From NCBI GenBank assembly GCA_919902445.1, contig CAKKQZ010000052.1, positions 1 through 54,113 on the forward strand: 54,113 nt of DNA, in the 5' to 3' direction. Of the stretch, positions 2,239 to 54,080 are shown in pieces. The notes under the pieces are model-generated. The model was not told where the DNA came from. It saw only the letters and a list, made by a program, of their open reading frames with translations, and made no database searches. The DNA comes from Omnitrophica bacterium GWA2_41_15. Its GTDB lineage: Bacteria > Omnitrophota > Gorgyraeia > Gygaellales > Profunditerraquicolaceae. How positions within the stretch are numbered: position 1 is the stretch's first letter; each line of letters opens with the position of its first letter. The position numbers and the translations under genes were made by a program.

Positions 2239-4929
2239 TTATCCTTTAATAACACCAACCGGGCGCATGCGGCAGACGCGTTTTGAAATACCCGCGTTGT
2301 GCACGACATCTACCACATCATTTACATCTTTATAAGCATCCGGGGCTTCTTCGACTATTGTGCCGCGCCCGGAAGCTTTTACCATTATACCCTTAGATTC
2401 CAGCTCTTTCAATAACACATTTAGGTTCGTTGACCTTGTTGAAGCAGCTCGGGATTTTACCCTTCCTGCCCCGTGACAATTCTTTACCAAAATAGGAGTA
2501 AATGTCTTTGTAAATACAAAATAATTATGATTATCTTCAACATCTATATTATATAATTCGCTAGTTCCTAAATCTCTTATTTTTCTTACTCTCTGCATTC
2601 TTAAAGGAGAATTAACTATTTTAGTGATTTGCTCTCTGTTATAACGCGAACTTGATTGCCAAACTAGAAATTTCAAAATTTTATCCTTCTCCATTAAATT
2701 ATTTCTATCGGCCTTTCGCTTAAAAGGCCATTTTATATTGCCCGAGTCCCAATTGTCAGTAAATAATTGACGGACAGAAAATAACTTGCTTCCATATTTT
2801 TGTTTATATGGTGCCCCCTTTACTCTTTTTGTGAATCTTAGGATTTCCTCAAGCTTTTCCGATATTTGAATTATATAACAACTATCCCTTTGGATTGACA
2901 CATATGGTAAAATTCCTAATTTTAAACATGAAAGAATAATCGCCCCTATAACATTTTCCTTACTATTAAATATACTTATTACTTTGTGCACAGGATTCCA
3001 AGTACCATCCCCATCTATAACACCCGCCAAGAAGTTAAAGGTACTTTCTATACTTAATCCTAAAATCCATGTCTGTAAATTCTCATATATATTCCTTATT
3101 TCTTCCACTGTATTCTTTCGGCCGGTTACAAAGTCACTGGCTGATCCTACTATCGTCCTCCCCCTTATATAACCAACACTAAATTTAGGTTTGCCTTCGC
3201 TTAAATCGTGCCCAAAGTATCCGAAAGAAGACTTCACATAATTTATAAAATCTAGTTTCTCTGCTGTTTCTTTCTGGGTAAATATAATCCTTTTTTGCTT
3301 TTTGTCGATATAACCATCGGTAACCAGTGCCCCTAGCAAAAAGGCTAAACTTGGATGATGCAAAATCCAAGGAATAGATACCTTATCCAAAACACAAATC
3401 ATCTTCTGGTTATCAATAATCTTCTCTATCTCTTCATACTCTAATCGCGCGTTATCAAAGAGTGAAAATTTATGATCCGAACTCGTATCTAAATTGCTAA
3501 ATCTAGATCTATTTGTCTGTGAAACCGATATTCTTATTGCCGAACCCATTCTTTTGCTCACGCCTAAAATAGGCTTCCATTCTACCAATAAATTTTCTTT
3601 ATTAAAAGATAACGCTTTGTAGGATAGTCCTAATTTATTGAGCTCATATATTTCTTTTAACGTGACAATCCCTTTATCAGTGAGAATTCTTGTATCTCCT
3701 GTAAAACACGTAGAATAAAAAGTCTCCACTGCCTTTTCTGTGCCGACCAGTAAATATGAATTCCTTCCCATATCCCCGGGAATTATTACCGGCTGGCCTA
3801 TTTTTTTATACCTTTGAGGCAACGCGGGATGGCCGGGAGGGAAAGCGCGGGTTGCGCCTTTCCTATGCACGCAAAGATTTTTTTCTTTTCCGTCAATAGT
3901 GTATTTTTCTATTTTTGCGATATTATGCGCGACATCGTAGATTAAATCCATACCCATCTTCTGCCAGGGCATATCAAAAACCCTTTCAAATGCCCTGCGG
4001 CAAAGGTGCATAAGGCACTGCCTGTTTGCCCAAGCGTAATTTGCAGCGCATCTCATCGCCCCTAAATACTGTTTTGCCTCAGGGGAGTTAACCGGAGCGC
4101 AAGCAAGCTGGCGGTCAGGGACATTGATGCTGTATTTGGAGAGGCAGTGGACCATATTCTTTAGGTAATCATCGCAAACCTGATAGCCGAAACCGCGCGA
4201 GCCGGAGTGAATCATCACGGTAACCTGGCCTAAAGAAAGCTCGAGCTCATCGCAGATATCGCGGTCAAAGAGCTGGTCAATTACCTGCACCTCCAAGAAA
4301 TGATTCCCTGAACCAAGTGTCCCTGATTGCGCCTTGCCTCTCTCATACGCCCTGTCAGAAACCGCTTCAGGGTCTGCGCCTGATATTGCGCCGTTTTCTT
4401 CCGTGCATTCCAGGTCATCCTGCGTGCCGTACCCTTTTTCAACCGCCCACCTGGAACCCTTCACCAATAGCTCTCTTTCCTCTTTAGAGCTTATCCTTAT
4501 GTCCCCTTTAGAGCCGACGCCTGCGGGCACATCGGAAAATAAAGCATAGACCAGATCCTTGATTTTATCCTTTATATCCTCAAACTGAAAGTTGGTTTTT
4601 ACCAGCCTTATTCCGCAATTTATGTCAAATCCGATTCCGCCAGGGGCAATTACTCCACCATCCTCTATATCCGTCGCTGCCACACCTCCTATACAAAAAC
4701 CGTATCCCCAATGGATATCCGGCATTGCTAAAGACGCATTTACAATGCCGGGTAGGAACGCTACATTAGCTACTTGCTCCAACGCCTTATCCTTATAAAT
4801 ATCTTTGAGCAGTTTCTCATCGGCATAGATAATCCCCGGCACGCGCATTCCCGGTTTATAGCTTATAGGTATGCGCCAACGGTAATTATCTATTTTATCT
4901 AATGAGCCTGGCCAGATATCAGACATCAA
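2239..4929 (-). CDS. rtcB: RNA 3'-phosphate/5'-OH ligase RtcB, interrupted by an intein
   Basis: 896 aa. RtcB motifs HWGYGFCIGGVAA, GSGNHFLEVQ and C-terminal CHGAGR. A 410-aa insertion lies between ...FYST and CHGAGR. Confidence 0.93.
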   Translation of the reverse strand: MMSDIWPGSLDKIDNYRWRIPISYKPGMRVPGIIYADEKLLKDIYKDKALEQVANVAFLPGIVNASLAMPDIHWGYGFCIGGVAATDIEDGGVIAPGGIGFDINCGIRLVKTNFQFEDIKDKIKDLVYALFSDVPAGVGSKGDIRISSKEERELLVKGSRWAVEKGYGTQDDLECTEENGAISGADPEAVSDRAYERGKAQSGTLGSGNHFLEVQVIDQLFDRDICDELELSLGQVTVMIHSGSRGFGYQVCDDYLKNMVHCLSKYSINVPDRQLACAPVNSPEAKQYLGAMRCAANYAWANRQCLMHLCRRAFERVFDMPWQKMGMDLIYDVAHNIAKIEKYTIDGKEKNLCVHRKGATRAFPPGHPALPQRYKKIGQPVIIPGDMGRNSYLLVGTEKAVETFYSTCFTGDTRILTDKGIVTLKEIYELNKLGLSYKALSFNKENLLVEWKPILGVSKRMGSAIRISVSQTNRSRFSNLDTSSDHKFSLFDNARLEYEEIEKIIDNQKMICVLDKVSIPWILHHPSLAFLLGALVTDGYIDKKQKRIIFTQKETAEKLDFINYVKSSFGYFGHDLSEGKPKFSVGYIRGRTIVGSASDFVTGRKNTVEEIRNIYENLQTWILGLSIESTFNFLAGVIDGDGTWNPVHKVISIFNSKENVIGAIILSCLKLGILPYVSIQRDSCYIIQISEKLEEILRFTKRVKGAPYKQKYGSKLFSVRQLFTDNWDSGNIKWPFKRKADRNNLMEKDKILKFLVWQSSSRYNREQITKIVNSPLRMQRVRKIRDLGTSELYNIDVEDNHNYFVFTKTFTPILVKNCHGAGRVKSRAASTRSTNLNVLLKELESKGIMVKASGRGTIVEEAPDAYKDVNDVVDVVHNAGISKRVCRMRPVGVIKG
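2479..3708 (-). mobile_element. intein with LAGLIDADG homing-endonuclease domain inside rtcB
   Basis: Residues 408-817. Starts CFTGDTRIL (Cys1, codon checked at 3706-3708) and ends HNYFVFTKTFTPILVKN followed by +1 Cys (2476-2478). Two LAGLIDADG-like motifs: LLGALVTDGYI and FLAGVIDGDGT. Confidence 0.85.
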
Positions 4930-7912: not shown

Positions 7913-8188
7913 TTATTTTACTTCTACAACACAATTGTGTGTGCCAAAACTATTAACTACGCAGGAATTGCAGCGCGGGTCATTCAGCCAGGTTCCGTCA
8001 ACAAGAAACTTATATTCGTACCTCCCTGGTTTCAGGCTGACCTTTGTCTTCCAGTTGCCTTTTGAATCTCTCTTTGCAGAGAGGTCCTTTGTGTTCCAGT
8101 TATTAAAACTGCCGGTGAGTGTAACTTTTTTTGCCTGCGGAGCAAAAAACTTAAATTCCGTGACTTTTTTGCCAGATAAGTTTACCAT
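7913..8188 (-). CDS. CBM48/AMPK-beta-like glycogen-binding domain protein
   Basis: Motifs GSFNNWN and GRYEYKFLVDGTW. Start moved to MVNLSGKK (ATG 8188), which is preceded by AAGGAGGGGG. The longer ORF (to 8224) runs into a repeat hairpin. Confidence 0.7.
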   Translation of the reverse strand: MVNLSGKKVTEFKFFAPQAKKVTLTGSFNNWNTKDLSAKRDSKGNWKTKVSLKPGRYEYKFLVDGTWLNDPRCNSCVVNSFGTHNCVVEVK

Positions 8189-8198
8189 ATCCCCCTCC

Positions 8199-8347
8199 TT
8201 AATGAACGCATAATTTACGAACACGAAGTGTGAGTAAATTATATGCGCGAATTAATCCCGCATCTTGCTTTCCTAAGGTAACGGCGGGAGAAATTCAAGC
8301 AAAACTTACGCAACATTAGTAAACGTAAGTTATTTGTGCGAATTACG
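8199..8347 (-). repeat. intergenic hairpin cassette (modules A, C, D-like) forming the 5' UTR of the CBM48 gene
   Basis: A: 8199-8253, GCATAATTTAC...GTAAATTATATGC flanked by TTAAT. C: CCCGC...GCGGG, 8254-8297. Third hairpin AAACTTACG...CGTAAGTT, 8299-8344. Confidence 0.8.
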
Positions 8348-9193: not shown

Positions 9194-9205
9194 ATGCTTA
9201 TTCTT

Positions 9206-9282
9206 TAGGGACGTTTCTTAACTTAGCTATAAGGTGTCCCCTACACGGGGACACTTTATAGCTGGCTTGAGAAACGTCCCTA
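9206..9282. repeat. 77-bp palindromic element, TAGGGACG...CGTCCCTA (copy 1)
   Basis: Outer arms TAGGGACGTTTCT/AGAAACGTCCCTA and inner arms GTGTCCCC/GGGGACAC. A second 77-bp copy lies at 30091-30167. Confidence 0.85.
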
Positions 9283-9288
9283 CTTTTA

Positions 9289-11461: not shown

Positions 11462-12487
11462 TTACTTACCTTCTAATTCCTGTATTTTATTCTTAAGTTC
11501 TTTTACCTGCTCATATAACTTCGGAAGATTTTGCACGCATGCATTTATGCGCCTTGCTTTATCATGCTGCCTTGCCGGGTAACCGGATACAATGGTATTA
11601 GGAGGAACCGACTTTGTGACTCCGCCTTGCGCAGCTACTACTGCCCCGTCTCCTATTGTTATGTGCCCGACTATCCCTGCCTGCCCGGCTAAGGTCACGT
11701 TATTTCCTATAATGGTGCTTCCTGAGATTCCTGCCTGCGCTACAATAATAGAGTTCTCGCCAATTACTACATTATGGGCAATCTGGACAAGGTTATCTAT
11801 TTTCGTGCCGCGGCCGATAACTGTTTTATCAAAACGCGCGCGGTCAATAGTTACATTGGCGCCTATCTCTACCTCGTCTCCTATTTCTACTATTCCTATT
11901 TGGGGGATCTTATGATGCAGCCCATTTATCGTAACAAAACCAAAACCATCCGAACCTATCACTGTGCCGCTGTGTATGATTACGCGGCTTCCTATAATTA
12001 CGCGTTCGCGGATAGATACATTCGGGTAAACAAGAGTATCATTTCCTATTTTTGTATGGTGCCCTATAAAACATCCTGAATAAATTATCGACTTATCCCC
12101 TATCGCAACATCATCTTCAATAACCACATAGGGCCCGATAGCGGCACCCTTACCCAGCGATACATTTTTACCTATCAGCGCACTCGGGTGCACCCCTTTA
12201 GGATGCTTAGCCTCATTAGGCGCAGCAAGAGAGATTATCTTAGCGAATGCCAAAGACGGATTCTCCGTGCGGATAGTCGGCTTAGGAACTCTCCCTGCAT
12301 CGCGTGAAGTTATTATTGCGGAGGCGCGTGTAGTATCTATAAGAGAGGAATACTTCGGATTTGCCAGAAAAGTAATGTCTCCTTCGGCTGCCTCTTTTAT
12401 CCCCGCAACTCCGGTAATGACTGTGCTCCCATCGCCGACAACCTCCCCTTCTATAAAATCTGCTATTTCCTTAAGGGTCTTGCGCAT
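11462..12487 (-). CDS. lpxD: UDP-3-O-acylglucosamine N-acyltransferase
   Basis: Hexapeptide-repeat protein with the LpxD N-terminal domain. Start uncertain: MRKTLKE at 12487, or 12499 per the ORF track. No clear SD. Confidence 0.88.
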   Translation of the reverse strand: MRKTLKEIADFIEGEVVGDGSTVITGVAGIKEAAEGDITFLANPKYSSLIDTTRASAIITSRDAGRVPKPTIRTENPSLAFAKIISLAAPNEAKHPKGVHPSALIGKNVSLGKGAAIGPYVVIEDDVAIGDKSIIYSGCFIGHHTKIGNDTLVYPNVSIRERVIIGSRVIIHSGTVIGSDGFGFVTINGLHHKIPQIGIVEIGDEVEIGANVTIDRARFDKTVIGRGTKIDNLVQIAHNVVIGENSIIVAQAGISGSTIIGNNVTLAGQAGIVGHITIGDGAVVAAQGGVTKSVPPNTIVSGYPARQHDKARRINACVQNLPKLYEQVKELKNKIQELEGK

Positions 12488-12488
12488 A

Positions 12489-12639
12489 TTAATGAACACT
12501 TGACTTACGAATACGCTTAGTATGAGTAAGTCAATGTGTGAATTAATCCCCCCTGCATTCTTGCAGAATGCAAGAAGGGGGGATAAGTTCGGCCAGATAA
12601 CTTATGTAGGCTAAAAGCCTCCATAAGTTATGGCCTCAC
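12489..12639 (-). repeat. stop-to-start hairpin cassette (modules D-C-A) between skp and lpxD
   Basis: A 12489-12544 (ACACTTGACTTAC...GTAAGTCAATGTGT), C 12545-12585 (CCCCCC...GGGGGG), D 12586-12639 (GGCCAGATAACTTATG...CATAAGTTATGGCC). Abuts the skp stop codon. Confidence 0.85.
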
Positions 12640-13161: not shown

Positions 13162-13300
13162 TTTCCCTCTTTTTCTACCCGGAAATTGATCCCGAGCGAA
13201 ACGAGGGATTAAACTTTCTACCAGTAAATTAATCCCGTTAGAAATTTTGCGTTTGAATTTTTTGTCAATCCGGTATTTCTAATGGGATAAATTCAGCCAT

Positions 13301-13390
13301 CAAACTTACGTTCACTTCCCGCTAATTATGTAATATCGGGCGGGACCCCGCCGTTAACCTAAGTTAGGGTAGCGGGGGTTCCGTAAGTTT
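13301..13390 (+). repeat. ACTTACG hairpin with a CGGGACCCCG double hairpin nested in its loop (inverted orientation)
   Basis: CAAACTTACG-TTCAC-[TTCCCGC...GGGCGGGACCCCGCC...AGCGGGGG]-TTC-CGTAAGTTTG on the plus strand, opposite to the other module-A copies. Confidence 0.75.
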
Positions 13391-13399
13391 GGGCTTCAT

Positions 13400-15847
13400 T
13401 TAGAATCCATGGCTTGCGCTGAAGTGGAATCTTCCGCTGTTTTTATCATCTTCGCCAGGGGCTTTATTTAAGGGTATGCCGTAATCAAGCATTATCGGGC
13501 CGATGGGGGTTTTAAGCCGAAGCCCCAAACCAATACCTGATTTAAAACCGCCTGTTTCCTTAACACCGTTTGCGTCTTCCGACGAACCGAGATCGCCTAA
13601 CTTTGACCACACATTTCCTACGTCATAAAATGCAGCCACTTTAAGAAAGTTGAATAAAGGATACGTATACTCGATATTGCCGATAGCCATAGAATTTCCG
13701 CCTAACGGGTCCTTTGACGCGGGGTCAATAGGGCCTAATGACCTTTCCTCGTAACCTCTTACCGAGGAAGCGCCGCCTGCAAAGAATCTTTCGTATATCG
13801 GTATACGCTCGGTATTTGCGTAGGCAGCGGCTAAACCTACCCTCCCCCTTATCTCCAGGACAGAATTTAAAGGCATTGGGAAATAATGCGAAGCGCGGCC
13901 GAAAAATTTCCAGAAATCCTTATCCCCTGCTAACGGCCCGCCGGCCCATTGGACTGAACCATTAAAGTAATCGCCTTTTCTTGGGTCAAAGACATTATCG
14001 CGGCTGTCAAAGGTAAGGCCGGGAGAAATACTGCTGACTGTATTCTTCCCAACTTCCTGCTTTAAGTCATTTGTGGCATTATCAGTTATGTTAGAGATAT
14101 CAATCTCTTCAATCTTGTACATCAAATCAGACCTTAAATATTCGCTTATTTCTTTGCCCAGGCGAAGGTCCCCCCCGGTAATTTTTTCATCATAACCGTA
14201 ACCAACATCGGAATCCCTTTTACGCTCGCGCCTGTAGGCGTCAAAACCAAAAGATACAGGATAATCAAAAATCCAGGGCTCTGTAAAACTTAAATCAAAG
14301 CCGCTGCTGACAGTTCCGAATGAAGCGCGGAATTTCAAATTTTGCCCGCCTCCGGTAAAATAAGGAAAATTCTTCCAATCAAAATTCTTCTGCTCTACCT
14401 CTACAAACCCTACGAACTGGTCAACCGTACTGTAACCTCCGCCAAAGCTAAAAGACCCGGTCTTTGTTTCCTTCACCTCAACTATCAAATCTTTTTTATC
14501 AGGCAGATTTGTATCCTCGGTATCGTAACTGACCTCTTCAAAGAACCCTAAGTTCTGCAGCCTCTCCTTGCTGCGGCGAAGTTTTTCTCCGTCAAATTTT
14601 TCTCCGGGACGAATCCTTAATTCACGGCGTATAATCACGTCTTTGGTCTTTACGTTCCCCCTTATCTTAACCTTAGCCACATAAGCAACTTCATTTTCAG
14701 TAATGTTGTAGGCGATATCCACGCGCCCGGTCTGCGAGTTAACAGAAGTTGTATCCTGAATTTGGGCAGATATGTATCCTTTATCAAAATACAGGCCATG
14801 GATACTGGCGGCATCGCTCTTTAGCGCTTCATCGCTGAAAACCTTACCCGGGATACACTCTTTAAGCGTAGCCAGTATCTCCTTCTCAGGAATTTCCTTA
14901 TTACCTTGTATAGTTACATTGCCGGCCAGATATTTTTTACCCTCCTGTATCTTTATGTAGATGTATAAAGAATAGGTTTTTTTGGCATCCGGCTTGACTT
15001 CATAATTAACCACTGCGTCGGTAAAGCCGCCTCTGGTGTAGAAAGACTTTATACGCTCAATATCCTCCTTTAATACCTCATCCTTCAGGACCCCTGCGTT
15101 AAAAATCCATGCGCGTTTTGTCTTCAGTAATTTTAGGATGCGTTTTTTTGGAAACGCCTTATTCCCTTCTACAGCTATATCTTTAATCCTTACCTTCTTG
15201 CCCTCCAGGGCACTAAATTCTACTTTTGCTTTATTAGTTTCTTTGTTTAGGTCGGCCTTGTAAGTTATCTGCGCTTGGCTAAAGCCCATTTTTTCATATA
15301 ACTTCTCAAGCGTGCGCACATCTTCGGTTAAATTCGGATAATCCAGATACTGCGTTTCTTTGGATTTAAGCATCCCTTTTAGTTTCTCATCCTTCATGGT
15401 AATGCGGTACATTCCGGAAAAACCAATCTTTTCTATGATGGGCCTTTCTACAACCGTGAGGATGATTTTTACGCCGTCTTTGTAATTTTGCGTATCTATT
15501 TTTATGTCGCTAAAATACCCCAGAAGGTAAAGCCGCTTTAAATCATCGCTAACAACATTCTCCTGATAAGGGCTGCCTATGCGGGTCTTCATCTTCGAAA
15601 CAATAGTATTGGTGCTTATGTTCTTATTCCCCTTTACATCTATTCCGGTAACTAATTTTAAGCCTTCGGGTGTTTGCGCTTCGATGGATTCCTGCGATTT
15701 TACTTCGGAGGCAACAGGGGAAGATTCGTCTGGTGGGGATTGCGCGAATACGCTTATACTGCTCCCTAATATTAAAAAAATTGAGAAAAACGTGGAAATT
15801 TTCTTACGCATTGTTGTTATTATATATGAATTGCCCGAGGTAAGCAA
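13400..15847 (-). CDS. bamA: outer-membrane protein assembly factor BamA
   Basis: 815 aa. Signal peptide, POTRA repeats, C-terminal beta-barrel ending ...SASHGF. Start is either TTG at 15847 (AGGAG 8 nt upstream) or ATG at 15811. Confidence 0.92.
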   Translation of the reverse strand: MLTSGNSYIITTMRKKISTFFSIFLILGSSISVFAQSPPDESSPVASEVKSQESIEAQTPEGLKLVTGIDVKGNKNISTNTIVSKMKTRIGSPYQENVVSDDLKRLYLLGYFSDIKIDTQNYKDGVKIILTVVERPIIEKIGFSGMYRITMKDEKLKGMLKSKETQYLDYPNLTEDVRTLEKLYEKMGFSQAQITYKADLNKETNKAKVEFSALEGKKVRIKDIAVEGNKAFPKKRILKLLKTKRAWIFNAGVLKDEVLKEDIERIKSFYTRGGFTDAVVNYEVKPDAKKTYSLYIYIKIQEGKKYLAGNVTIQGNKEIPEKEILATLKECIPGKVFSDEALKSDAASIHGLYFDKGYISAQIQDTTSVNSQTGRVDIAYNITENEVAYVAKVKIRGNVKTKDVIIRRELRIRPGEKFDGEKLRRSKERLQNLGFFEEVSYDTEDTNLPDKKDLIVEVKETKTGSFSFGGGYSTVDQFVGFVEVEQKNFDWKNFPYFTGGGQNLKFRASFGTVSSGFDLSFTEPWIFDYPVSFGFDAYRRERKRDSDVGYGYDEKITGGDLRLGKEISEYLRSDLMYKIEEIDISNITDNATNDLKQEVGKNTVSSISPGLTFDSRDNVFDPRKGDYFNGSVQWAGGPLAGDKDFWKFFGRASHYFPMPLNSVLEIRGRVGLAAAYANTERIPIYERFFAGGASSVRGYEERSLGPIDPASKDPLGGNSMAIGNIEYTYPLFNFLKVAAFYDVGNVWSKLGDLGSSEDANGVKETGGFKSGIGLGLRLKTPIGPIMLDYGIPLNKAPGEDDKNSGRFHFSASHGF

Positions 15848-15858
15848 GAAAAAAACTC

Positions 15859-16220
15859 CTATTCAATGCGGGCGATGTTTTCAAATCTTGTATATTCTTT
15901 GATAAATGAGCGCATAACTTATGGAACGATAGTGAACATAAGTTATTACGCGAATTAATCCTTGACACGTAAGGTTCAAATCTTAATGTCATCGAATTCG
16001 TGTCAAGCATAACCTTGTTACTCAATGCGGGCGATGTTTTCAAACCTTGTATATTCTTTGATAAATGAGCGCATAACTTATGGAATGATAGTAAACATAA
16101 GTTATTGCGCGAATTTTGAGCACACAAAGTTTCTATTAGCGAAATCCCGCGTAAGCGGGGACCCTTGACACGTAAGATTCAAATCTTAATGTCGTCGAAT
16201 TCGTGTCAAGCATAACCTTG
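15859..16220 (-). repeat. two tandem units, each a 52-bp copy of the dnaB 3' end plus hairpin modules
   Basis: dnaB tail copies at 15859-15910 and 16018-16069 match 16221-16272 at 51/52 and 50/52. Interleaved modules: A (15911-15956, 16070-16114), B (16116-16160), E (15962-16017, 16164-16220). Confidence 0.9.
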
Positions 16221-17588
16221 CTACTCAATGCGGGCGATGTTTTCAAATCTTGTATATTCTTTGATAAATGAGAGTTTCAAGGCGCCTACCGGCCCGTTAC
16301 GTTGTTTGGCAATAATAACTTCCGCCACCCCCTGATTGTCGGGCGTCGGATTATAATACTCTTCCCTTAATATCAAGACAACTACATCCGCATCCTGCTC
16401 TATTGCGCCGGATTCCCTTAAATCCGATAGCTGCGGCCGATGGTCTGTGCGCGATTCTACCGCGCGGGATAACTGGCTTATTGCTATCACCGGAATACTT
16501 AATTCGCGCGCAAGCGCCTTGAGTGAGCGCGAAATCTCAGAGATCTCCTGCTGCCTGTTCTCTGTATTATTACTTGAGCCGCTCATTAACTGCATGTAAT
16601 CCAGTATAATCAGTTTTATATCCTGGTGCGCTTTAAGGCGCCTGGCTTTAGCGCGTAATTGCATTACCGTTATACCTGCTGAATCGTCGATAAATATGGG
16701 GGCTTCGGAAAGTTTTCCCGCTGCCGCAGTAAGGCGCGGCCAGTCAGAAACAGCAAGGTAGCCCGTCCTGACCTTATGGGCGTCAACCCTGGCATGAGAA
16801 CAAAGCATCCTCTGAACAAGCTGCTCCTTGGCCATCTCTAAACTAAAAATCGCTAAGGGCACCTTTTCTATTACTCCGGCGTATTCTGCTATTCCCAGCG
16901 CAAAAGCGCTTTTGCCCATTGAGGGCCTTCCGGCAACAACCACAAGGTCCGAATTCTGCAGCCCGGCTGTCTTTATATCAAAATCAATATAGCCCGTCGG
17001 AATACCGGTAACATGCGCCTTCTTCTGATAAAGCCTGTCTATGGACTCAATACTATCCTTAACAATTTCTTTCAGGTGCAAGGTTGTGCCTGAACTTTTT
17101 CTATCGCTAACTTCAAATATAAATTTTTCGGCGCTATCAACCACCTCGTTGACATTGCCTTCACTTTCATAACATAAAGAAACAATCCGCGTGGCATTAT
17201 TTATCAGGGTCCTTAAGATACTTTTTTCCTTGACGATGCTTGAGTAGTGGCTGATATTTGCCGCTGTAGGAACAGAGTTTGCAAGCGCTGTTAAAAAACT
17301 TGGCCCCCCAACTTCCTCCAGCGTCTCCTCTTTTTTTAGCGCATCCGTCAAAGTGATCAGGTCAACCGGCTTATTGGCGCTGTAAAGGCTTATGATTGCC
17401 TCAAATATTTTACGGTGGCTGTCTTTGTAAAAAGAATCCCTGTCCAGCATTTCACTGGCAACTGAAATAGCATCTTCATCGAGCAGCATGGAACCTAATA
17501 CCGCCATTTCAGCTTCCAGGTTTTGCGGAGGAATTTTGTCTAATGATACTGAGCCGAGCATATTTTGCATTATTTCTTTACAATCCAA
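16221..17588 (-). CDS. dnaB: replicative DNA helicase
   Basis: 455 aa. Walker A GRPSMGKSAF and DnaB N- and C-terminal domains. Confidence 0.95.
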   Translation of the reverse strand: MDCKEIMQNMLGSVSLDKIPPQNLEAEMAVLGSMLLDEDAISVASEMLDRDSFYKDSHRKIFEAIISLYSANKPVDLITLTDALKKEETLEEVGGPSFLTALANSVPTAANISHYSSIVKEKSILRTLINNATRIVSLCYESEGNVNEVVDSAEKFIFEVSDRKSSGTTLHLKEIVKDSIESIDRLYQKKAHVTGIPTGYIDFDIKTAGLQNSDLVVVAGRPSMGKSAFALGIAEYAGVIEKVPLAIFSLEMAKEQLVQRMLCSHARVDAHKVRTGYLAVSDWPRLTAAAGKLSEAPIFIDDSAGITVMQLRAKARRLKAHQDIKLIILDYMQLMSGSSNNTENRQQEISEISRSLKALARELSIPVIAISQLSRAVESRTDHRPQLSDLRESGAIEQDADVVVLILREEYYNPTPDNQGVAEVIIAKQRNGPVGALKLSFIKEYTRFENIARIE

Positions 17589-18013
17589 ACCTTAATTTTG
17601 GCAAGGACTTCCGGGTGCAGCCTTACCGGTACCTCGTAAATCCCTAAAGCCTTAATCGGTTCATCCAGCATAATGGAATTCTTATTTATCTCAAAGCCCT
17701 CTTCTTTTAATGCCGCTGCCAGATCAATAACGCCTATACTTCCGTATAGCTTATCTTCTTCCTGCGTAAGCGCTTGGAGAGTTAAAGAGATGCCCTCTAA
17801 TCTCTCCTTTTGCTCCTCTGCCTCATCTTGAATTTTTTCCTGCTGGAGATTCTTTTTAATCTTTTCCTGCTCCAGCCGTTTTAAATTTTCAGGAGTCAAA
17901 GGAATAGCGAGTTTATTAGGTATAAGAAAATTACGGGCAAACCCATCTTTCACCTTTACAACTGCCCCGGCTTTCCCTATCCTATCCACATCTTTATTTA
18001 ATATGACTTCCAT
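17570..18013 (-). CDS. rplI: 50S ribosomal protein L9
   Basis: 147 aa. MEVILNKDVDRIGKAGAVVKVKDGFARNFLIP. Confidence 0.93.
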   Translation of the reverse strand: MEVILNKDVDRIGKAGAVVKVKDGFARNFLIPNKLAIPLTPENLKRLEQEKIKKNLQQEKIQDEAEEQKERLEGISLTLQALTQEEDKLYGSIGVIDLAAALKEEGFEINKNSIMLDEPIKALGIYEVPVRLHPEVLAKIKVWIVKK

Positions 18014-18023
18014 AATACACCTC

Positions 18024-18228
18024 TTAATGAGCCCACAACTTACGGAACGTCAGTGAACGTAAGTTGTTTGGGCGAATTATTGAGCACCTAAAGTTTCTAT
18101 TAGCGAAATCCCGCGTAAGCGGGGATCCCCACATCTTGTTTCCAAGCAAACAGCGGGATAAGTTCGGACAGATAAGTTATGTCGTTTAGATTTCTTATTA
18201 TATAGTTCTCCATAACTTATGTCCTTAC
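18024..18228 (-). repeat. full stop-to-start hairpin cassette (modules D-C-B-A) between rpsR and rplI
   Basis: A 18024-18078, B 18080-18124, C 18126-18158, D 18159-18228. It fills the whole spacer between the rpsR stop codon and the rplI SD. Confidence 0.85.
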
Positions 18229-20740: not shown

Positions 20741-20839
20741 AATAATAAAACTCTCCTTAATGAGCCCACAACTTACGGAACGTTAGTTGTTTGGGCGAAT
20801 TAATCCCAATAACAATCTAATCGGTATTTCTAACTTAGG

Positions 20840-21862: not shown

Positions 21863-23116
21863 TTACCTTTTTTTTAATACCCTTGCCGGAACACCTGCAA
21901 CCGCTGTCCAGTCTTTGACCTTTGTATGTTTTGTAACTACCGACCCGGCTCCGGTTATCGCGCCTTTACCGATTTTTACGGGAGCTACAAAAATAGTATC
22001 GGAGCCGATATTTGCCCTGTCTTTGATCTCGGTGATGCTCTTTTTACCTCGGTCAAAATTAGCCGTAACCGTACCGGCGCCGATATTCACATTTTGGCCG
22101 ATACGGCTATCACCGAGATAACAAAAATGTTTGGCTATAGTTTTGGAGGAAATCTTTGAGCGGACAACCTCAAGGAAATTTCCCAATGTTACATCATCTT
22201 TTAGTTCGGTGCCTTCCCGAAGGTGAGCAAAAGGCCCAACGAAGCAGCGTTTGCCAATTTTAACACCTCTTTCGATGACTGTAAAGGGATAAATAGTGGT
22301 ATTCCGGCCTATTTTTACGCCATAACTTATAAAGGTAGAATCAGGGTCAACAATAGTAATTCCCTTTTGCATAAAATCTTCGTTTATGCGCTTTTGCATT
22401 AGCGCGTTTGCCTTTGCCAGTTCAGAGCGGGAATTTATCCCTAATGCTTCGTCGGTATCGGATATCCTTACTGAATCAATGAGCTTGCCTTTTTTATAAA
22501 GTATGCTTATTATATCCGTGAGGTAATATTCTTTTTTTCGGTTATTGGGACGGATATATTTTAGGCCCTCTGATAAACTCTCACTTTTAAAACAAATTAT
22601 TCCGGTGTTAATTTCTTTAATATCTTTCTGAAAATCATCCGCGTCTTTTTCTTCTACAATGCCTAAAACGCTTGAGTATTTATCGCGTAAAATCCTGCCG
22701 TAACCGGAAGGTTTATCTAATTGCGCGGTCAAAATAGTAGCGTCCACATTATTTTCGATGTGGTACTTTAAAAGTTTATCGATGCTGTCTTTCCTTAAAA
22801 GCGGTATATCTGCGTAAAGCACTAATACCGTGCCTTTAAAACCCTTTAACGCACTCAAGGCGCACTTGACTGCATCCGCAGTGCCGGCAAGCCGTTTTTG
22901 TATAACAACTTTTTCACCCGGCGAAAGTGACTTTCTTACTTCTTGATGCCTGTGGCCAAGCACCGTAACAGGCTTTTTGATTTTTAAATCCTTGGCCAGC
23001 TCAAAGACATATTCCAGCATCGGCCTGCCGCAAAGCGGATGTAGGACTTTAGGCGTATCGGATTTCATCCGCTCTCCCTTCCCCGCTGCCAAAATTATAC
23101 AAGCAATTTTTTTCAT
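21863..23116 (-). CDS. glmU: bifunctional GlcNAc-1-P uridylyltransferase / GlcN-1-P acetyltransferase
   Basis: 417 aa. LAAGKGERM N-terminus and a C-terminal hexapeptide beta-helix. Confidence 0.9.
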   Translation of the reverse strand: MKKIACIILAAGKGERMKSDTPKVLHPLCGRPMLEYVFELAKDLKIKKPVTVLGHRHQEVRKSLSPGEKVVIQKRLAGTADAVKCALSALKGFKGTVLVLYADIPLLRKDSIDKLLKYHIENNVDATILTAQLDKPSGYGRILRDKYSSVLGIVEEKDADDFQKDIKEINTGIICFKSESLSEGLKYIRPNNRKKEYYLTDIISILYKKGKLIDSVRISDTDEALGINSRSELAKANALMQKRINEDFMQKGITIVDPDSTFISYGVKIGRNTTIYPFTVIERGVKIGKRCFVGPFAHLREGTELKDDVTLGNFLEVVRSKISSKTIAKHFCYLGDSRIGQNVNIGAGTVTANFDRGKKSITEIKDRANIGSDTIFVAPVKIGKGAITGAGSVVTKHTKVKDWTAVAGVPARVLKKR

Positions 23117-23286
23117 CTTTGAAGAATTAAACCTCCTCTTAACTTTCGCCGCATTGCTTTCTGATTCCCCGTTAACACCTTATCCGCCAATTCATTTATC
23201 AACCTGAAACCTTCGAGTTTGTTTTGTGCGGATATTTTTGCGCCTTTTAAGATTTTCTCTTTTTTTGTCTCCCACCCAAACCTCAT
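23113..23286 (-). CDS. small ORF (57 aa), unknown function, not in the supplied ORF track
   Basis: Hand-translated MRFGWETKKEKILKGAKISAQNKLEGFRLINELADKVLTGNQKAMRRKLRGGLILQR. ATGA start/stop overlaps with the upstream gene (23283-23286) and with glmU (23113-23116). Confidence 0.35.
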   Translation of the reverse strand: MRFGWETKKEKILKGAKISAQNKLEGFRLINELADKVLTGNQKAMRRKLRGGLILQR

Positions 23287-23774
23287 CTTAGGCTCCTTGC
23301 TAACTTTAAGTCTTCGATATCTTTCAGGTCTTTTTCTCTGCCGGCAGCTTTCTTCATCTCTATAAATTTTTTAGGAGAAATAACAGTTAAATTCAACCCT
23401 GCGGCCTTAACTTTTACGGCATCCCTGATAGCGTCTTTAAAATCAACGGGAGAATCTATAATGATGTCAACCTCTTCGTATGTCCTTTCCCCTTTATAAA
23501 AATTAAATGCCTTCATATTCTTATTTATCACCCAATCTTGGCGCGTCTTTTTATCCGCTATCATAACAGGATCCACCGGCTGCTTAACATGGTAACCTGC
23601 TTTTTTTAGAATATTAACAATCTTAAGGAGGTTTTTATCGGCCATTTCAACAAGGATATCCATATCAAGCGTATTGCGGTAGCCGCCGAGAAGGTTAAAT
23701 GCTATGCCTCCCACCAACACGTATTTTACCTTTTGTTTCTGAAACTCCCTCAGTATCTCCTCGTAAATTATCAT
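23283..23774 (-). CDS. putative nucleotidyltransferase-fold protein (small MNT/DUF-type)
   Basis: 163 aa. VLVGGIAFNLLGGYRNTLDMDILV resembles the G-x-x...D-x-D NTase core. C-terminal AGREKDLKDIEDL motif. Confidence 0.45.
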   Translation of the reverse strand: MIIYEEILREFQKQKVKYVLVGGIAFNLLGGYRNTLDMDILVEMADKNLLKIVNILKKAGYHVKQPVDPVMIADKKTRQDWVINKNMKAFNFYKGERTYEEVDIIIDSPVDFKDAIRDAVKVKAAGLNLTVISPKKFIEMKKAAGREKDLKDIEDLKLARSLR

Positions 23775-23987
23775 AGCTTAAACGCAGCTAATCACACCCT
23801 TTTAAAACATCCAAACTGTTTGGCTGGGATGTATGGATTCCGCTTCGCTAGAACCAGTCGTCCTCGCTTACGCTCTTCCTCCCCATAGGGGCTCTGCCCC
23901 TCTGGCGTCCCGCTTTCAGCGGGACTGTCACCCCGAAAGCGTGGGGACGGTCTCCCCACACCCCTTAGGTTCTCATCTAGATAACTG

Positions 23988-24058
23988 CTGGGACGTATGG
24001 ATTCGAACCATAATAGCGAGACCCAAATTCTCGTGTCCTACCATTGGACGACATCCCA
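23988..24058 (-). tRNA. tRNA-Gln (anticodon TTG)
   Basis: Reverse complement TGGGATGTCGTCCAATGGTAGGACACGAGAATTTGGGTCTCG..., anticodon loop ATTTGGG, T-arm TATGGTTCGAATCCATA. CCA is not encoded. Confidence 0.85.
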
Positions 24059-24092
24059 AAATTTATAAGCTGTGGCGTCCATACCCACCATT

Positions 24093-24159
24093 GTCCCGCT
24101 GAATCCATTCCTTATCGCCAGCGGGATCCCGCTGGCACTAATTATACGCTGCAGCGGGA
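24093..24159. repeat. CGGGATCCCG double-hairpin element upstream of tRNA-Gln
   Basis: GTCCCGCTG ... CCAGCGGGATCCCGCTGG ... CAGCGGGA. Same three-part architecture as 34820-34880, 50613-50685, 13316-13378 and 52143-52185. Confidence 0.8.
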
Positions 24160-24183
24160 GACGACATCCCAAAAATTTGGACA

Positions 24184-24579
24184 TTAAACCACTGTGGGTC
24201 CCTTTGTTTTCTCCTGCTCGTAGGCCTCCAAAACTTTTTTCTGTAAGTGTTCCCTGAATACCTGCGTTATAGGATGGGCGATATCTTTATGCTCCAATTG
24301 CGCGGTAGCTCCTGCTTCCGGGGTTACCGGGCGAACAGCCACAGGCAAGGGGCAAGCGCACTGGTTGCAAAATTTAGAGCGCAGTTCGTTCTTAAATGCG
24401 CACTTAGGGCAGGGCTGCTTTACTTTTCTTGAAGGCATGGCGATAAATAAGCCGCTTGTGCCATCTATCACTTTTATATTCCTGACTACAAAGGCATTGT
24501 CAAAGGTTACGGTGGCATATGCCTTTAGTTTTTTATCCGGTGAGTCCTTTAAAACCACCCTGACTTCTGTTATATCCAT
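24184..24579 (-). CDS. spoVG: SpoVG family protein with an inserted zinc-ribbon-like segment
   Basis: [12 protein letters not shown]...[36 protein letters not shown] ... DIAHPI. Start at ATG 24579 after GGAGG. CPKC...CNQC insert. Confidence 0.85.
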
Positions 24580-28407: not shown

Positions 28408-28480
28408 GTTGCGGGACAGTCACTCCTTACAAGGGACTGTCCCCGAAGGGGACTGTCCCTTGACAGTCCCTGGCCGCAAC
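28408..28480 (-). repeat. composite long hairpin built from four GGGACWGTC units downstream of hisG
   Basis: Outer stem GTTGCGG/CCGCAAC encloses GGGACAGTCAC, AGGGACTGTCCCC-gaa-GGGGACTGTCCCT and TGACAGTCCC. On the sense strand the apex is a UUCG loop. Confidence 0.8.
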
Positions 28481-28493
28481 ACTATTCTATCAC

Positions 28494-29378
28494 CTAATAA
28501 ATAACTTTATTCAAAGGGTATTCTATAATCCCTTGAGCGCCTGCATTTTTTAACTGCGGGATCAACACGCGCACAATTTTTTCGTCTATCACTGTCTCTA
28601 TGGCATACCAGCCATCCTCGGAAAGTGAGGAAACAGTAGGTTTTTTCAATGCAGGCAGGATAGCAGCCACTTTCTTCAAGTCATTCTTCCTGACATTCAT
28701 TTTTAAACCTACCTTTTCTTCGGCAGATATAGCTCCTTTTAAAAGCAGCGCGATCTGCTCCATCTTGGATTTTTTCCAGCTATTTCTAAAGGCTTGCTTA
28801 TTTGCGATAAACTGGGTAGTAGACTCGGCAATAGTGGCGATCTCCGCTAATTTATTCGCCATCAAGGAGCGGCCAGTTTCAGTCAACTCCACAATTGCAT
28901 CAACCAATCCAGCGCTTACCTTTACTTCGGTTGCCCCCCAGCTGAATTCTACTTCAACCTTTACTTTATTTTCTTTAAAATATTCCCTTGTAACGTTGAC
29001 TAATTCTGTGGCTATGCGCTTCCCTTCTAAATCCTTTACAGACTTCATCCCGGAGTCCTGAGGCACAGCCAGCACCCAACGCACTTTATTTAAACCCTGT
29101 TTGGCATAAGCTAAATCTGTTACCCTCACTACATCTGATTTATTCTCCAGTATCCAGTCGTTACCGGTAATCCCGCAGTCTAAGGCACCGTCCTGCACAT
29201 ACCTTGACATCTCTTGCGCCCGTAGTAATACCGGTTCTATCTCGCGGTCATCTATCGACGGAAAATAAGAACGCTCGCTGGATAAAGAAACATTAAATCC
29301 CGCTTTCCTGAATATCTTAAAGGTAGACTCTTGAAGGCTCCCCTTTGGCAAGCCTAATTTAAGCACTTTGTTTGGCAT
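28494..29378 (-). CDS. hisG: ATP phosphoribosyltransferase (long form)
   Basis: About 294 aa from [17 protein letters not shown]. The ORF-track start at 29393 is a GTG inside a repeat stem. Confidence 0.88.
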
Positions 29379-29380
29379 TT

Positions 29381-29567
29381 TTAATGAGCCCACAACTTAC
29401 GGAACGACAGTGAACGTAAGTTGTTTGGGCGAATTATTGAGCACATAAAGTTTCTATTAGCGAAATCCCGCGTAAGCGGGGCTCCCGCATCTTGTTTTCC
29501 AAGGAAACAGCGGGAGAGGTTCAACCGCATAACTTATGGAGCGTAAACATAAGTTATCGGCACGGAC
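29381..29567 (-). repeat. hairpin cassette (modules D-C-B-A) forming the hisG 5' UTR
   Basis: A 29381-29435, B 29437-29481, C 29482-29518, D 29519-29567. Confidence 0.85.
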
Positions 29568-30076: not shown

Positions 30077-30090
30077 CGCTTCCCCCTTTT

Positions 30091-30167
30091 TAGGGACGTT
30101 TCTCAACTTGAATATAAAGTGTCCCCTTTAAGGGGACACTTTACTAACGGCCTTAGAACCGTCCCTA
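30091..30167. repeat. 77-bp palindromic element, TAGGGACG...CGTCCCTA (copy 2)
   Basis: Same length, termini and inner GTGTCCCC/GGGGACAC arms as 9206-9282. Confidence 0.85.
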
Positions 30168-30172
30168 GTTTT

Positions 30173-44010: not shown

Positions 44011-44232
44011 TTATAGCGCGATTATCTCCTTTATCTCTGGAACCTCCTGCCTTAAAACCCTTTCTACCCCTGTCTTTAAAGTCATCTGAGACATCGGGCA
44101 GCATCCGCAGGTGCCGGTAAGTTTTAACTTCACTACTCCATCGGGAGTAACCTCCACCAATTCCACATTTCCGCCATCAGCCATAAGCATGGGGCGTATC
44201 TTATCAAGCGCTTTCTCTACTCTTTCTCTCAT
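44011..44232 (-). CDS. NifU C-terminal-like (Nfu) Fe-S scaffold domain protein
   Basis: 73 aa from MRERVEK (ATG 44232 after AAGGAGAGAG). ADGGNVELV and GTCGCCPMS motifs. Confidence 0.85.
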
Positions 44233-44242
44233 CGCTCTCTCC

Positions 44243-44340
44243 TTAATGAGCACATAACTTACGAACACGATAGTGTGAGTAAGTTATTGTGCGAATTAAT
44301 CCCGCATCTTGCCTTCCAAGGGAACAGCGGGAGAAGTTCA
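44243..44340 (-). repeat. hairpin cassette (modules C-A) forming the nfu 5' UTR
   Basis: A 44243-44297 (GCACATAACTTAC...GTAAGTTATTGTGC, TTAAT on both flanks). C 44298-44340. Confidence 0.85.
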
Positions 44341-44343
44341 ATA

Positions 44344-53747: not shown

Positions 53748-54080
53748 TTAAGATACTGTTCCTGAAAATATCTGTTTTAATTCCTGAGCAGGCCTCCCGG
53801 ATTCAAGCACAACTAGAATATCTTTAAGCATTGCTTCTGTTGAATAACAACGCTCTTCTTCTAATCTTAGGATATCGGCAATACAGGAGACAACTTTCTG
53901 CATATCTGAATTGCCTTTAAGTAAAGATACCTGGACATATTCTTTTATCCTTTCTGCAGAAGGAATTATTCCAGAGCTTACCATCCGCGCTATTTGTTGC
54001 CACTCTTCATCAAGGTTAACTTGAAGTAGGGACTGTCCCCGCAGGGGACTGTCCCTAAGGCCTATGCTTAGATTACTCAT
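53748..54080 (-). CDS. hypothetical protein
   Basis: 110-aa ORF with no recognisable motif. The first about 25 codons are encoded by a GGGACTGTCCC palindrome pair, so the true start may be the internal Met (MVSSGII, about 53984). Confidence 0.4.
   Translation of the reverse strand: MSNLSIGLRDSPLRGQSLLQVNLDEEWQQIARMVSSGIIPSAERIKEYVQVSLLKGNSDMQKVVSCIADILRLEEERCYSTEAMLKDILVVLESGRPAQELKQIFSGTVS

Follow-up and report, generated by a model that had tools for sequence, protein, structure and literature searches.

The tRNA-Gln(UUG) gene in a 54,113-nt stretch of the genome of an uncultured groundwater member of the Omnitrophota, Omnitrophica bacterium GWA2_41_15 (contig CAKKQZ010000052.1; the whole stretch is hereafter the window) is flanked by two short inserts, a structured element of ~130 nt downstream (insert A) and a unit with a palindromic double hairpin upstream (insert B). 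As read from the sequence, a repeated tRNA segment, on the side next to the gene, preserves the complete gene. The reading that we favor, with a confidence somewhat short of even, is that small non-autonomous elements integrate at tRNA arms by recombination across a tRNA-arm-like core that they carry themselves, through a putative enzyme acting in trans. As part of the same reading, and with the same reserve, the tRNA-Gln gene would be an insertion hot spot that now holds two small elements encoding no protein. tRNA genes are classic landing sites for protein-encoded integrases. Elements of 110–170 nt that encode no protein would here arrive at the same result, in that they enter a tRNA arm and the gene is restored.

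The intact tRNA gene (23987..24058, minus strand; UGGGAUG...CGUCCCAG; detected by ARAGORN and by Rfam RF00005 with 54.7 bits) belongs to the first of two types described below (type G) and does not encode CCA. As a preliminary description of this stretch had stated, its 3′ end GCTGGGACGTATGGATTC (23987–24004) recurs downstream as GCTGGGATGTATGGATTC (23823–23840) with 17/18 identical positions, and the 5′ sequence GACGACATCCCAAAATTT (24047–24064) recurs upstream at 24160–24178 with one extra A. Each insert is thus framed by two direct copies of a tRNA end, of which the one next to the gene leaves the tRNA complete. Chance had been considered improbable, and this held when we compared the tRNA, extended by 10 nt on each side, with either 390-nt flank: the longest match with no more than one mismatch was 18 nt, vs. 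a maximum of 16 and a mean of 9.5 in 2000 first-order Markov randomizations per flank. The proposed 18-bp frame has to be amended. Direct repeats do bound the inserts, but there is no clean 18-bp target duplication, and the tRNA homology continues inside both inserts (positions 13–19 and 51–56). Overall, the distal copies are tRNA fragments 1–19 and 51–76, each split by a hairpin (at 12/13 and 56/57, respectively), and positions 20–50 are missing from both. A tRNA gene that is split or interrupted by an intron (group I or archaeal-type) was rejected on these grounds and because the double hairpin matches no intron family in Rfam.

An assembly artefact or a chance similarity is barely conceivable as the source of this arrangement. 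Insert A and its distal copy were reproduced in contigs from ENA ERZ1292634 and Logan ERR3858130, ERR3858132 and SRR32696701 (L001, L002, L004; L numbers designate the loci examined), and insert B with its distal copy in two of these, ENA ERZ1292634 and Logan ERR3858132 (L005, L007), i.e., each was found base for base in at least two independent assemblies. Homologous structures are present in unrelated samples, and 18 nt were reached in no randomization. What speaks for an artefact is that several contigs of the independent assemblies end inside or beside the tRNA, so that the join across the tRNA core is supported by the window's own assembly alone; such ends are to be expected for a locus bearing repeats. 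Artefact and chance were therefore rejected on the strength of the reproduction and the randomizations, save for the join across the 55-nt tRNA core.

All major open reading frames (ORFs) of the window lie on the minus strand in a collinear arrangement. The exact proteins of the window were recovered from Hainich groundwater assemblies; ERZ1292634, ERR3858130 and ERR3858132 come from Hainich H51 samples. The nearest species-representative genomes are Omnitrophota metagenome-assembled genomes with only ~59% IspE identity. The gene order on the minus strand is ispE, spoVG, tRNA-Gln(UUG), a DUF6036 nucleotidyltransferase, a 57-aa ORF, glmU and prs. The ispE-spoVG-tRNA-Gln synteny was retained in 17 of the 19 related Omnitrophota-like genome loci examined, and L054 differs from most loci in having ispE directly upstream of the tRNA. 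To locate orthologous loci we used the upstream neighbor spoVG (24184..24579, minus strand), which has a C-terminal zinc-ribbon extension; this extension (CPKC...CNQC) is found in the window and in thousands of Omnitrophota homologues, some with Pfam DZR or zinc_ribbon matches. The empty sites that the preliminary description had proposed to look for do exist: relatives with SpoVG 95% (L084/L085), 90% (L086–L088) and 85% (L090/L091) identical have the tRNA alone with neither insert, and their gap between spoVG and the next gene is only 138–158 nt. As far as a comparison of sequences goes, the close relatives without them show both window inserts to be genuine insertions. The other four tRNA genes of the window (Ser, Ser, Lys and Arg) have no flanking partial copies, apart from the similarity between the two adjacent tRNA-Ser genes. 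The two-sided pattern was found again at other tRNAs, a tRNA-Gly in L051 and a tRNA-Gln(CUG) in L071.

The downstream insert can be followed on the minus strand from the proximal 3′ repeat, which is tRNA positions 57–74 within the functional gene (23987..24004). A 7-nt spacer, AGUUAUC (23980..23986, its boundary set by the covariance-model match), leads to the 131-nt structured core (23849..23979; 105.1 bits and E 2e-26 with our covariance model R1, and supported by alignment A1, RNAalifold and covariation). The core opens with the 5′ strand AGAACC of a closing helix, P1 (23968–23973), followed by GGGGUG, a hairpin GUGGGG/CCCCAC, the invariant GGGGUGACAG, a variable hairpin, the invariant CCAGAGGGGC-AGA-GCCCCUAUGGGGAGG, a second variable hairpin, CGAC and the 3′ strand of P1, GGUUCU (23850–23855). 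Its 3′ end reads ..GGACGAC-UGGUUC, where UGGUUC is tRNA positions 51–56, i.e., TGGTTC of the distal copy (23851..23856, minus strand) doubles as the 3′ strand of the closing helix. A 10-nt mini-hairpin, UAGCGAAGCG (23841..23850, minus strand), divides the distal T loop at 56/57, and the distal 3′ copy GAAUCCAUACAUCCCAG-CCA follows (23821..23840, minus strand), consisting of positions 57–73 plus CCA and ending in ...CCCAG-CCA. Its single difference from the gene is G67 to A67, which makes the pair 6–67 Watson-Crick. An equivalent small hairpin, with a GAA loop and compensating stem changes (GGCC/GGCC, GCGC/GCGC, GGAC/GUCC, GGUC/GACC), divides the distal T loop in all other copies of the Omnitrophota type. 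The 146-nt downstream insert has no coding capacity and its core has a minimum free energy (MFE) z-score of −3.7. The upstream insert contains a member of one of the dispersed families of the window, the CGGGATCCCG double hairpin. No other copy of the downstream insert was found in the window by blastn-short, and the downstream insert has no relative among the dispersed modules.

Elsewhere it has many. A homologous insert lies behind a tRNA of the second type (type C) in L014, and the exact 25-base motif CCAGAGGGGCNNNGCCCCTATGGGGAGG, common to this locus and the window, retrieved 33 metagenome loci, many of them at contig ends. The model R1 found 40 copies (E < 0.001) in the 446 kb of contig DNA examined, only one of them in the window (23849–23979). 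The elements are ~125–145 nt long. In alignment A1 (21 copies) the consensus runs from P1 through AAAGGGGUG, a hairpin GYGGGG/CCCCRC, an occasional extra hairpin CCUGCCUGC..GCAGGCAGG, the invariant GGGGUGACAG, a variable hairpin, CGCCAGAGGGGC-NNN-GCCCCUAUGGGGAGG, a further variable hairpin, often with GNRA-like loops, and CGAC to the 3′ strand of P1. The alignment was made with MAFFT and not fitted to the structure, and 94.8% of its cells are paired. Changes on both sides of a pair were found in 45 cells vs. 16.8 ± 3.0 in shuffles, and the covariation score was 0.269 vs. 0.122 in shuffles (0/500 reached 0.269) and ≤0.08 with slid partners. Most members were found by the exact motif, which inflates the apparent conservation and limits the diversity, and the invariant P4 hairpin is uninformative, being fixed by the search pattern. 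G-U pairs are far commoner than A-C pairs, indicating that the folded strand is the tRNA-sense strand.

The downstream insert is therefore a structured, multi-copy, tRNA-associated element new to Rfam. No Rfam 15 family reached its gathering score on any copy (window plus 18 further loci), and the E-value mode applied to the region gave only the tRNA and a sub-threshold match to Clostridiales-2 RNA. The core motif had no match in IMG/VR viral contigs, nor did a sensitive blastn search give any in PLSDB plasmids, and a search of the available literature on Clostridiales-2, partial tRNA duplication with mobile elements, Omnitrophota repeats and rtT returned nothing relevant. Hammerhead, hepatitis delta virus-like, group I or II intron and transfer-messenger RNA (tmRNA) identities were rejected, with no defining motifs by inspection and no tmRNA by ARAGORN, Rfam being the formal test. 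Whether or not pairing sets its target, as considered below, the family is an unannotated structured element in several bacterial lineages, which breaks metagenome assemblies at tRNA loci and can mislead the annotation of tRNAs and genomic islands.

Copies were found directly 3′ of at least eight tRNA species: tRNA-Gly(GCC) and tRNA-Lys(UUU) (L051/L083), tRNA-Gln(UUG) (window, L014, L054), tRNA-Gln(CUG) (L071, L073, L078), tRNA-Glu(CUC) (L061), tRNA-Val(CAC) (L063) and tRNA-Met(CAU) (L065/L072), besides a partial tRNA at a contig end (L066) and a tRNA with a group I intron (L075). The intron of the latter (RF00028, 68.4 bits, L075 444–637; in the region from about −760 to −140 relative to the motif, oriented on the element) carries an HNH-like ORF. 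Each tRNA-adjacent copy is followed by a direct copy of the same tRNA that starts at positions 48–58 and is 18 to ~70 nt long. The start of the repeat is fixed in the T stem or loop and its end varies: it can be the tRNA 3′ end (18–26 nt; 18 nt in the window and 24 in L051), a point 16 nt past it (37 nt in all, L065) or lie beyond the downstream terminator (~70 nt, L066). Without exception, P1 has as its 3′ strand (x) the T-stem 5′ strand plus TTC of the distal copy, and as its 5′ strand (x′) the complement of x, so that P1, its 3′ strand being taken from the distal tRNA copy, differs between tRNAs; x′/x pairs include AGAACC/GGTTCT, CGAACCC/GGGTTTG, GGACTC/GAGTTC and GGTGCCC/GGGCACC, and a single P1 pair was AU in 10, UA in 5 and CG in 4 copies. 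The tRNA-like tail was also found away from any adjacent tRNA, in L059, in a second copy in L071 (L071b) and two or three times in L076. The tail in L018 is of a different allele, and in L016 a type-C fragment lies behind a type-G gene. One copy is located in the 5′ untranslated region (UTR) of spoVG (L019), with a complementary segment upstream and no tail. In L071 there is a tandem array of tRNA, element, tail, HNH and DUF3800 genes, tRNA-end fragment and element, an order typical of serial integration at one site. Finally, the copies of a high-GC group, found in at least 17 loci, are located not beside tRNAs but at palindromes of the GGGCACCC type.

It is this evidence that makes us prefer integration: the repeat starts at a fixed place and ends at variable ones, both halves of the T arm are on the element, x′ and tail are specific for each tRNA, and there are tails away from tRNAs and a tandem array with cargo (L071). 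The preliminary description had also raised the alternative of decayed tandem tRNA-Gln genes, recognizable by homology beyond 18 bp. The homology does exceed 18 bp, but the fragments are probably not decayed tandem genes, given the repeat length that varies from 18 to ~70 nt from a fixed T-arm start, the tails without adjacent tRNA (L059, L071b, L076) and the distal fragments of the other tRNA-Gln type (L014, L016, L018–L020). Moreover, the fragments are in a nested and not a tandem order (5′ piece upstream, 3′ piece downstream), their middle part is missing, the pieces are undecayed, and partial copies recur at other tRNAs together with the same element.

The same boundaries could be produced by a long target-site duplication, which extends the view of the preliminary description. 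Staggered cleavage would underlie it, or else an RNA of the element would be reverse-transcribed in a target-primed manner, with the first nick fixed in a tRNA loop (T loop at 56/57, D arm at 12/13) and the second placed at a variable distance outside the gene, so that the stretch between the nicks, and with it the gene end, would be duplicated. The fixed inner and variable outer boundary of the 3′ repeat (18 to ~70 nt, with the terminator included in L066) fits this, as does the L065 repeat running straight to the 5′ end of the element. The element is RNA-like, an RNA or cDNA intermediate would account for CCA on some distal copies, and there are many copies at contig ends in one high-GC sample. 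We nevertheless hold this explanation to be doubtful. In the distal copies tRNA homology is present on both sides of the hairpins, which therefore do not lie between the repeats; the distal fragment is of the other tRNA-Gln type or allele in L014, L016, L018, L019 and L020; tails exist without an adjacent tRNA (L059, L076); a pure target duplication leaves unexplained that x′ matches each target; and no reverse transcriptase was seen nearby by ORF inspection. To us, a tRNA segment that moves together with the element, or one left behind by gene replacement, is a better explanation than a simple duplication by staggered cuts.

On the upstream side, the double hairpin previously reported, TCCCGCTG..CAGCGGGA twice around CGGGATCCCG at 24094–24159, is indeed present, within a longer tRNA 5′ fragment (1–12, hairpin, 13–19) and not between repeats. 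Again on the minus strand, the distal 5′ copy (24160..24178) is the leader AAAUUUU plus tRNA positions 1–12 (UGGGAUGUCGUC) and starts 13 nt after the spoVG stop; in L089 the functional type-G tRNA starts 4–5 nt after the stop. The 66-nt palindromic element (TCCCGCUG..CAGCGGGA twice, centre CGGGATCCCG; 24094..24159, without assigned strand) separates positions 12 and 13, and the fragment continues beyond it with CAATGGT, positions 13–19 (24087..24093). This continuation is also found in L009, L012, L014 and L094 (CAATAGT in L097), and the type-C equivalent TAATGGTAG(C/T)AC in L014 and L016. A 22-nt filler with GGACGCCAC (GGACGAC in relatives; 24065..24086) precedes the functional leader, of which 6 nt together with tRNA positions 1–12 form the proximal 5′ repeat (24047..24064). 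At the end of the filler there is a −10-like TATAAA, read by eye only (24062–24067, 3 nt into the proximal repeat); a sigma-70 consensus promoter scan gave no support for the −10 boxes read by eye upstream of both 5′ copies.

A regular-expression search of 711 kb of the contig DNA examined gave 11 distinct copies of the double hairpin. Eight are exactly at 12/13 of a tRNA-Gln 5′ fragment (window, L009, L012, L014 twice, L016, L094, L097), one is at 56/57 of a type-C 3′ fragment (L016) and two are elsewhere in the window. The loci searched were centred on tRNA-Gln, which biases the proportion of 9/11, although not the exactness of the position. Insert B shares with the rest of the window only the hairpin core (blastn-short). 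Across loci the hairpin loops have diverged, the stems are kept by compensating changes and the tRNA-derived parts are kept, and an extended stem GUCGUCC/GGACGAC is kept in four loci; the MFE z-score of the double hairpin is only −1.9. Comparable 5′ partial copies, likewise interrupted by hairpins or modules, precede the tRNA-Gly of L051 (positions −10 to +9) and the tRNA-Gln(CUG) of L071 (positions 1–15, a composite module, then 16–21). In L009 a DDE_5/IS4-like transposase gene (3650–4915) has been inserted between the 5′ fragment with its double-hairpin unit and the site that the tRNA occupies in L012, its sister locus, and counts as a further insertion at this hot spot.

The empty-site relatives do not carry the same gene as the window. 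Theirs is an unrelated tRNA-Gln(UUG), type C (UGCCCGGUAGUG...CCGGGCAA; A73, C3-G70), while the window, L089, L094 and L097 have type G (G73, G3-C70). Both types are present across the 19 genome loci and alternate at one syntenic site among relatives with 83–95% identical SpoVG (L084–L097), which raises a testable question, namely what drives the turnover of an essential single-copy tRNA gene. In five loci (L016, L019, L020, L014, L008) fragments of one type flank an intact gene of the other in symmetric order. L016 has a type-C fragment before a type-G gene (C5′, G gene, C3′, G3′), L014 a type-G fragment before a type-C gene (C5′, G5′, C gene, C3′), L019 and L020 have G positions 1–35, modules, C gene, modules and G positions 58–74, and in L008 a type-C fragment (17–30) abuts the type-G gene. 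The distal 5′ copy of the window lies within ~10 nt of the L089 tRNA start and the distal 3′ copy of L054 is 5 nt before the glmU start, which puts the outer pieces at the ancestral positions.

Such a picture is what serial gene replacement would leave. The resident tRNA-Gln would have been disrupted and replaced by a cassette with a complete tRNA-Gln, its leader and its trailer, the outer fragments being the old gene, hit later by loop-targeting hairpin elements. Along with the symmetric nested fragments (L016, L019, L020, L014), the fragment abutting the gene in L008, the alternation of types among close relatives and the ancestral positions of the outer pieces, this would explain why 5′ and 3′ fragments occur together at the window, L014, L016, L051 (Gly) and L071. 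As an account of the whole we find it rather improbable. Events confined to one side are common (the 3′ side in L054, L063 and L065, the 5′ side in L012, L094 and L097), outer and inner sequences do not differ in type in the window, the 3′ fragment pairs with the 5′ end of the element in a covarying helix in every copy and so is no passive relic, and the relic parts are undecayed although the neighboring filler and loops diverged. The explanations are not mutually exclusive, and gene replacement and element insertion probably both act at the tRNA-Gln locus.

To return to integration, which remains our preferred reading, each element would cut the tRNA gene at one arm and bring a matching gene-proximal tRNA stretch that leaves the gene intact. 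Downstream, entry would take place at the T arm by recombination across the T-arm-like core, in the Campbell or attachment-site (att) manner, giving tRNA 1–50, element-borne 51–74, spacer, x′, core, CGAC and chromosomal 51–74. A presumed enzyme would act in trans, and x′-x pairing may help in target selection. Upstream, a unit immediately in front of the functional gene combines a −10-like box, tRNA positions 1–12, a REP-like double hairpin and tRNA positions 13–25; a like recombination or a rescue duplication might have provided it as a spare promoter-proximal tRNA copy. Such a copy would tolerate a hairpin at 12/13, an insertion that the cell would not survive in the working gene. Both hairpins, the one at 12/13 and that at 56/57, would then stop the non-functional copies from acting as tRNA pieces or as recombination sites.

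Several observations weigh against this scheme. The variable hairpins, with their GNRA or GAA-type loops, have undergone compensatory changes, which suggest a functional RNA and are not expected of protein-binding att arms, so that a classical integrase att site fails to explain the core. No integrase, reverse transcriptase or transposase was found beside any copy within ~3 kb, with ORFs mostly judged by eye and few Pfam checks, so the mobilizing enzyme is purely hypothetical; the neighbors were unrelated housekeeping genes, the HNH and DUF3800 pair of L071 and an ordinary DDE-type insertion sequence (L009). A displaced chromosomal 3′ end should be without CCA, and yet the distal copy has discriminator-CCA in the window, L071, L073 and L075, while the adjacent genes and the tRNA-Gln of the relatives encode none (three or four events in roughly ten, with 1 in 64 expected for each). 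The high-GC copies are many per sample, not beside tRNAs and sometimes without the 3′ repeat (L062, L069, L081), which looks like transposition-style spread. In the upstream unit the tRNA-derived parts and the GTCGTCC/GGACGAC stem are conserved where the hairpin loops diverged, which hints at function rather than relic status, and the inserted material apart from the hairpin is <50 nt, odd for an element.

Another way of joining the RNA-like core to the tRNA ends, although we regard it as unlikely, is that the ~130-nt element is the RNA component of an undescribed mobility or recombination system, which would recognize its target by pairing, direct a trans-acting recombinase or reverse transcriptase to tRNA genes and regenerate the gene. 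Here x′ would pair with the T-stem/TTC half and the tail (T-arm 3′ half, acceptor strand and often CCA) would match the other half. Insertion would occur with or without cargo genes, retargeting would require a change of x′ and tail, and the tRNA-like tail may also recruit host tRNA-processing enzymes. If pairing does set the target, this would be a compact system that can be retargeted by sequence change.

The conserved fold also suits an RNA that serves the host, where a leader (tRNA 5′-half mimic with two hairpins) and a trailer (core plus T-arm/acceptor/CCA mimic) would be processed from the pre-tRNA, as a split tRNA-like RNA held by a 7-bp acceptor-like helix or as processing or stability signals, with the E. 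coli tyrT-rttR trailer as the analogue. A67 makes a Watson-Crick pair with U6 of the distal 5′ fragment where G67 would form a wobble, several tails have CCA, the GTCGTCC/GGACGAC stem of the 5′ unit is conserved like the core fold, the E. coli tyrT locus has the same layout, and one copy is in the spoVG 5′ UTR (L019). Against such a role, which seems to us quite improbable, stand the patchy distribution even among close relatives, the presence of the same core behind many tRNAs and in high copy at non-tRNA sites, and the impossibility of acceptor pairing where only one side is present.

The surroundings of the gene contain further repeats and accessory genes. Between tRNA-Gln and glmU the window has a two-gene cassette (23113–23774, minus strand) of the DUF6036 nucleotidyltransferase followed by the 57-aa ORF (Pfam; DUF6036 gene at 23283..23774). 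It is also present, with a 53–57 aa ORF, in L014, L019 and L084 (among them a 95% SpoVG relative) and missing from some relatives (L086, L090, L095), and possibly represents a small island at the tRNA, of an accessory or toxin-antitoxin-like kind. Small ORFs after tRNA-Gln in L021, L022 and L023 resemble, by eye, GIY-YIG (UPF0213-type) nuclease genes, with palindromic elements starting GGTTCGAC or CTTCGAC between them and the tRNA. Composite intergenic modules are located at 8186–8345, 12476–12607, 13284–13400, 18012–18182, 20744–20802, 29369–29539 and 44230–44341 of the window. On the minus strand they read TAATTCGCxCAAACAACTTACG...CGTAAGTTGTGGGCTCATTAAGGAG, frequently in combination with TCCCGC..GCGGGA hairpins and with a TTGAGCAC..GAAATCCCGCGTAAGCGGGG unit. 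Their CTCATTAAGGAG end abuts start codons, so that the module seems to supply a ribosome-binding site. These modules also interrupt tRNA-Gln fragments in L018, L020 and L071. At the tail of dnaB (15801–16272), whose triplication the preliminary description had mentioned, the last ~50 nt of the gene plus ~60 nt of trailer occur three times with modules of this family between them, in units of 110 nt (96% and 61% identical) that follow the same gene-end-preserving logic as at tRNA-Gln. An 84-nt palindromic repeat, TTTAGGGACGTTTCT...AGAAACGTCCCTA, occurs at 9204–9287 and 30089–30172, and another, AGGGACTGTCCCCGNAGGGGACTGTCCCT, at 28432–28460, 51516–51544 and 54028–54056. In L097 a relative of the 84-nt palindrome replaces most of the structured element, of which only the GGACGAGAACCTAAG start is left.

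Among known systems, the elements mobilized by tyrosine integrases are the obvious reference; Williams is said to have distinguished, in 2002, sublocation classes of these tRNA-targeting integrative elements with their att identity blocks. Like them, the family has a repeat from the T arm to or past the tRNA 3′ end (51/57–74 in the window) that keeps the gene intact, forms tandem arrays at one tRNA (L071) and has cargo genes beside the site. Unlike them, it is only ~130–170 nt long, has an integrase in no copy and shows RNA-type covariation instead of protein-binding arm sites; the second duplication on the 5′ side, the CCA on distal copies and the high-copy branch away from tRNAs set it further apart. 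The trailer of E. coli tyrT-tyrV (RttR, rtT) has units of ~160–180 nt after the tRNA that end, as here, in a tRNA 3′ end plus CCA. In MG1655 the units are 178 nt long and close with 19 nt from the 3′ end of tRNA-Tyr followed by CCA, with copies at +157, +335 and +513 after tyrV. Homology to rtT was rejected (R1 gave ≤10.8 bits on the E. coli unit and the Rfam rtT model had no match in the window), and the rtT repeats are confined to one locus, whereas the family is found behind at least eight tRNA species in several lineages.

Insert B resembles repetitive extragenic palindromic (REP) sequences, bacterial interspersed mosaic elements (BIMEs) and miniature inverted-repeat transposable elements (MITEs) in being a short, imperfect, intergenic and dispersed palindrome with compensating stem changes and three copies in the window. 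It differs in that 9/11 copies are at two exact positions of tRNA-Gln fragments (12/13, 56/57), and in having neither a constant terminal inverted repeat nor a short fixed target duplication. No REP-associated tyrosine transposase (RAYT) or other transposase was identified for it, only three ORFs of the window having been scanned against Pfam. For the downstream family a MITE identity was rejected, since its terminal pairing x′/x varies with the tRNA and its repeat length from 18 to ~70 nt.

The likeness to systems guided by pairing, i.e., group II introns with their exon- and intron-binding sites (EBS-IBS) and the bridge or seek RNAs of IS110/IS1111, is one of logic only: x′ is the complement of the left half of the target and the tail repeats the right half, and both change with the target tRNA. 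In contrast to those systems, no intron domains, DEDD recombinase or reverse transcriptase were seen, and the pairing segments are at the ends of the element and not in internal loops. The nearest resemblance among annotated RNAs is to the Clostridiales-2 RNA (RF02937), with which the family shares the motif order GGGGUG, hairpin, GGGUGnCAG, hairpin, CGnC..AGGG. Membership was rejected, since the score (19.6 bits, E 0.05) is below the gathering score of 58.6. L076 has a diverged copy (1610–1761) with a P4 hairpin of different sequence; this copy resembles the RNA further. Taken together with the sub-threshold match in the window (23895–23973, minus strand), it suggests that the family is broader than the exact motif by which we have found it.

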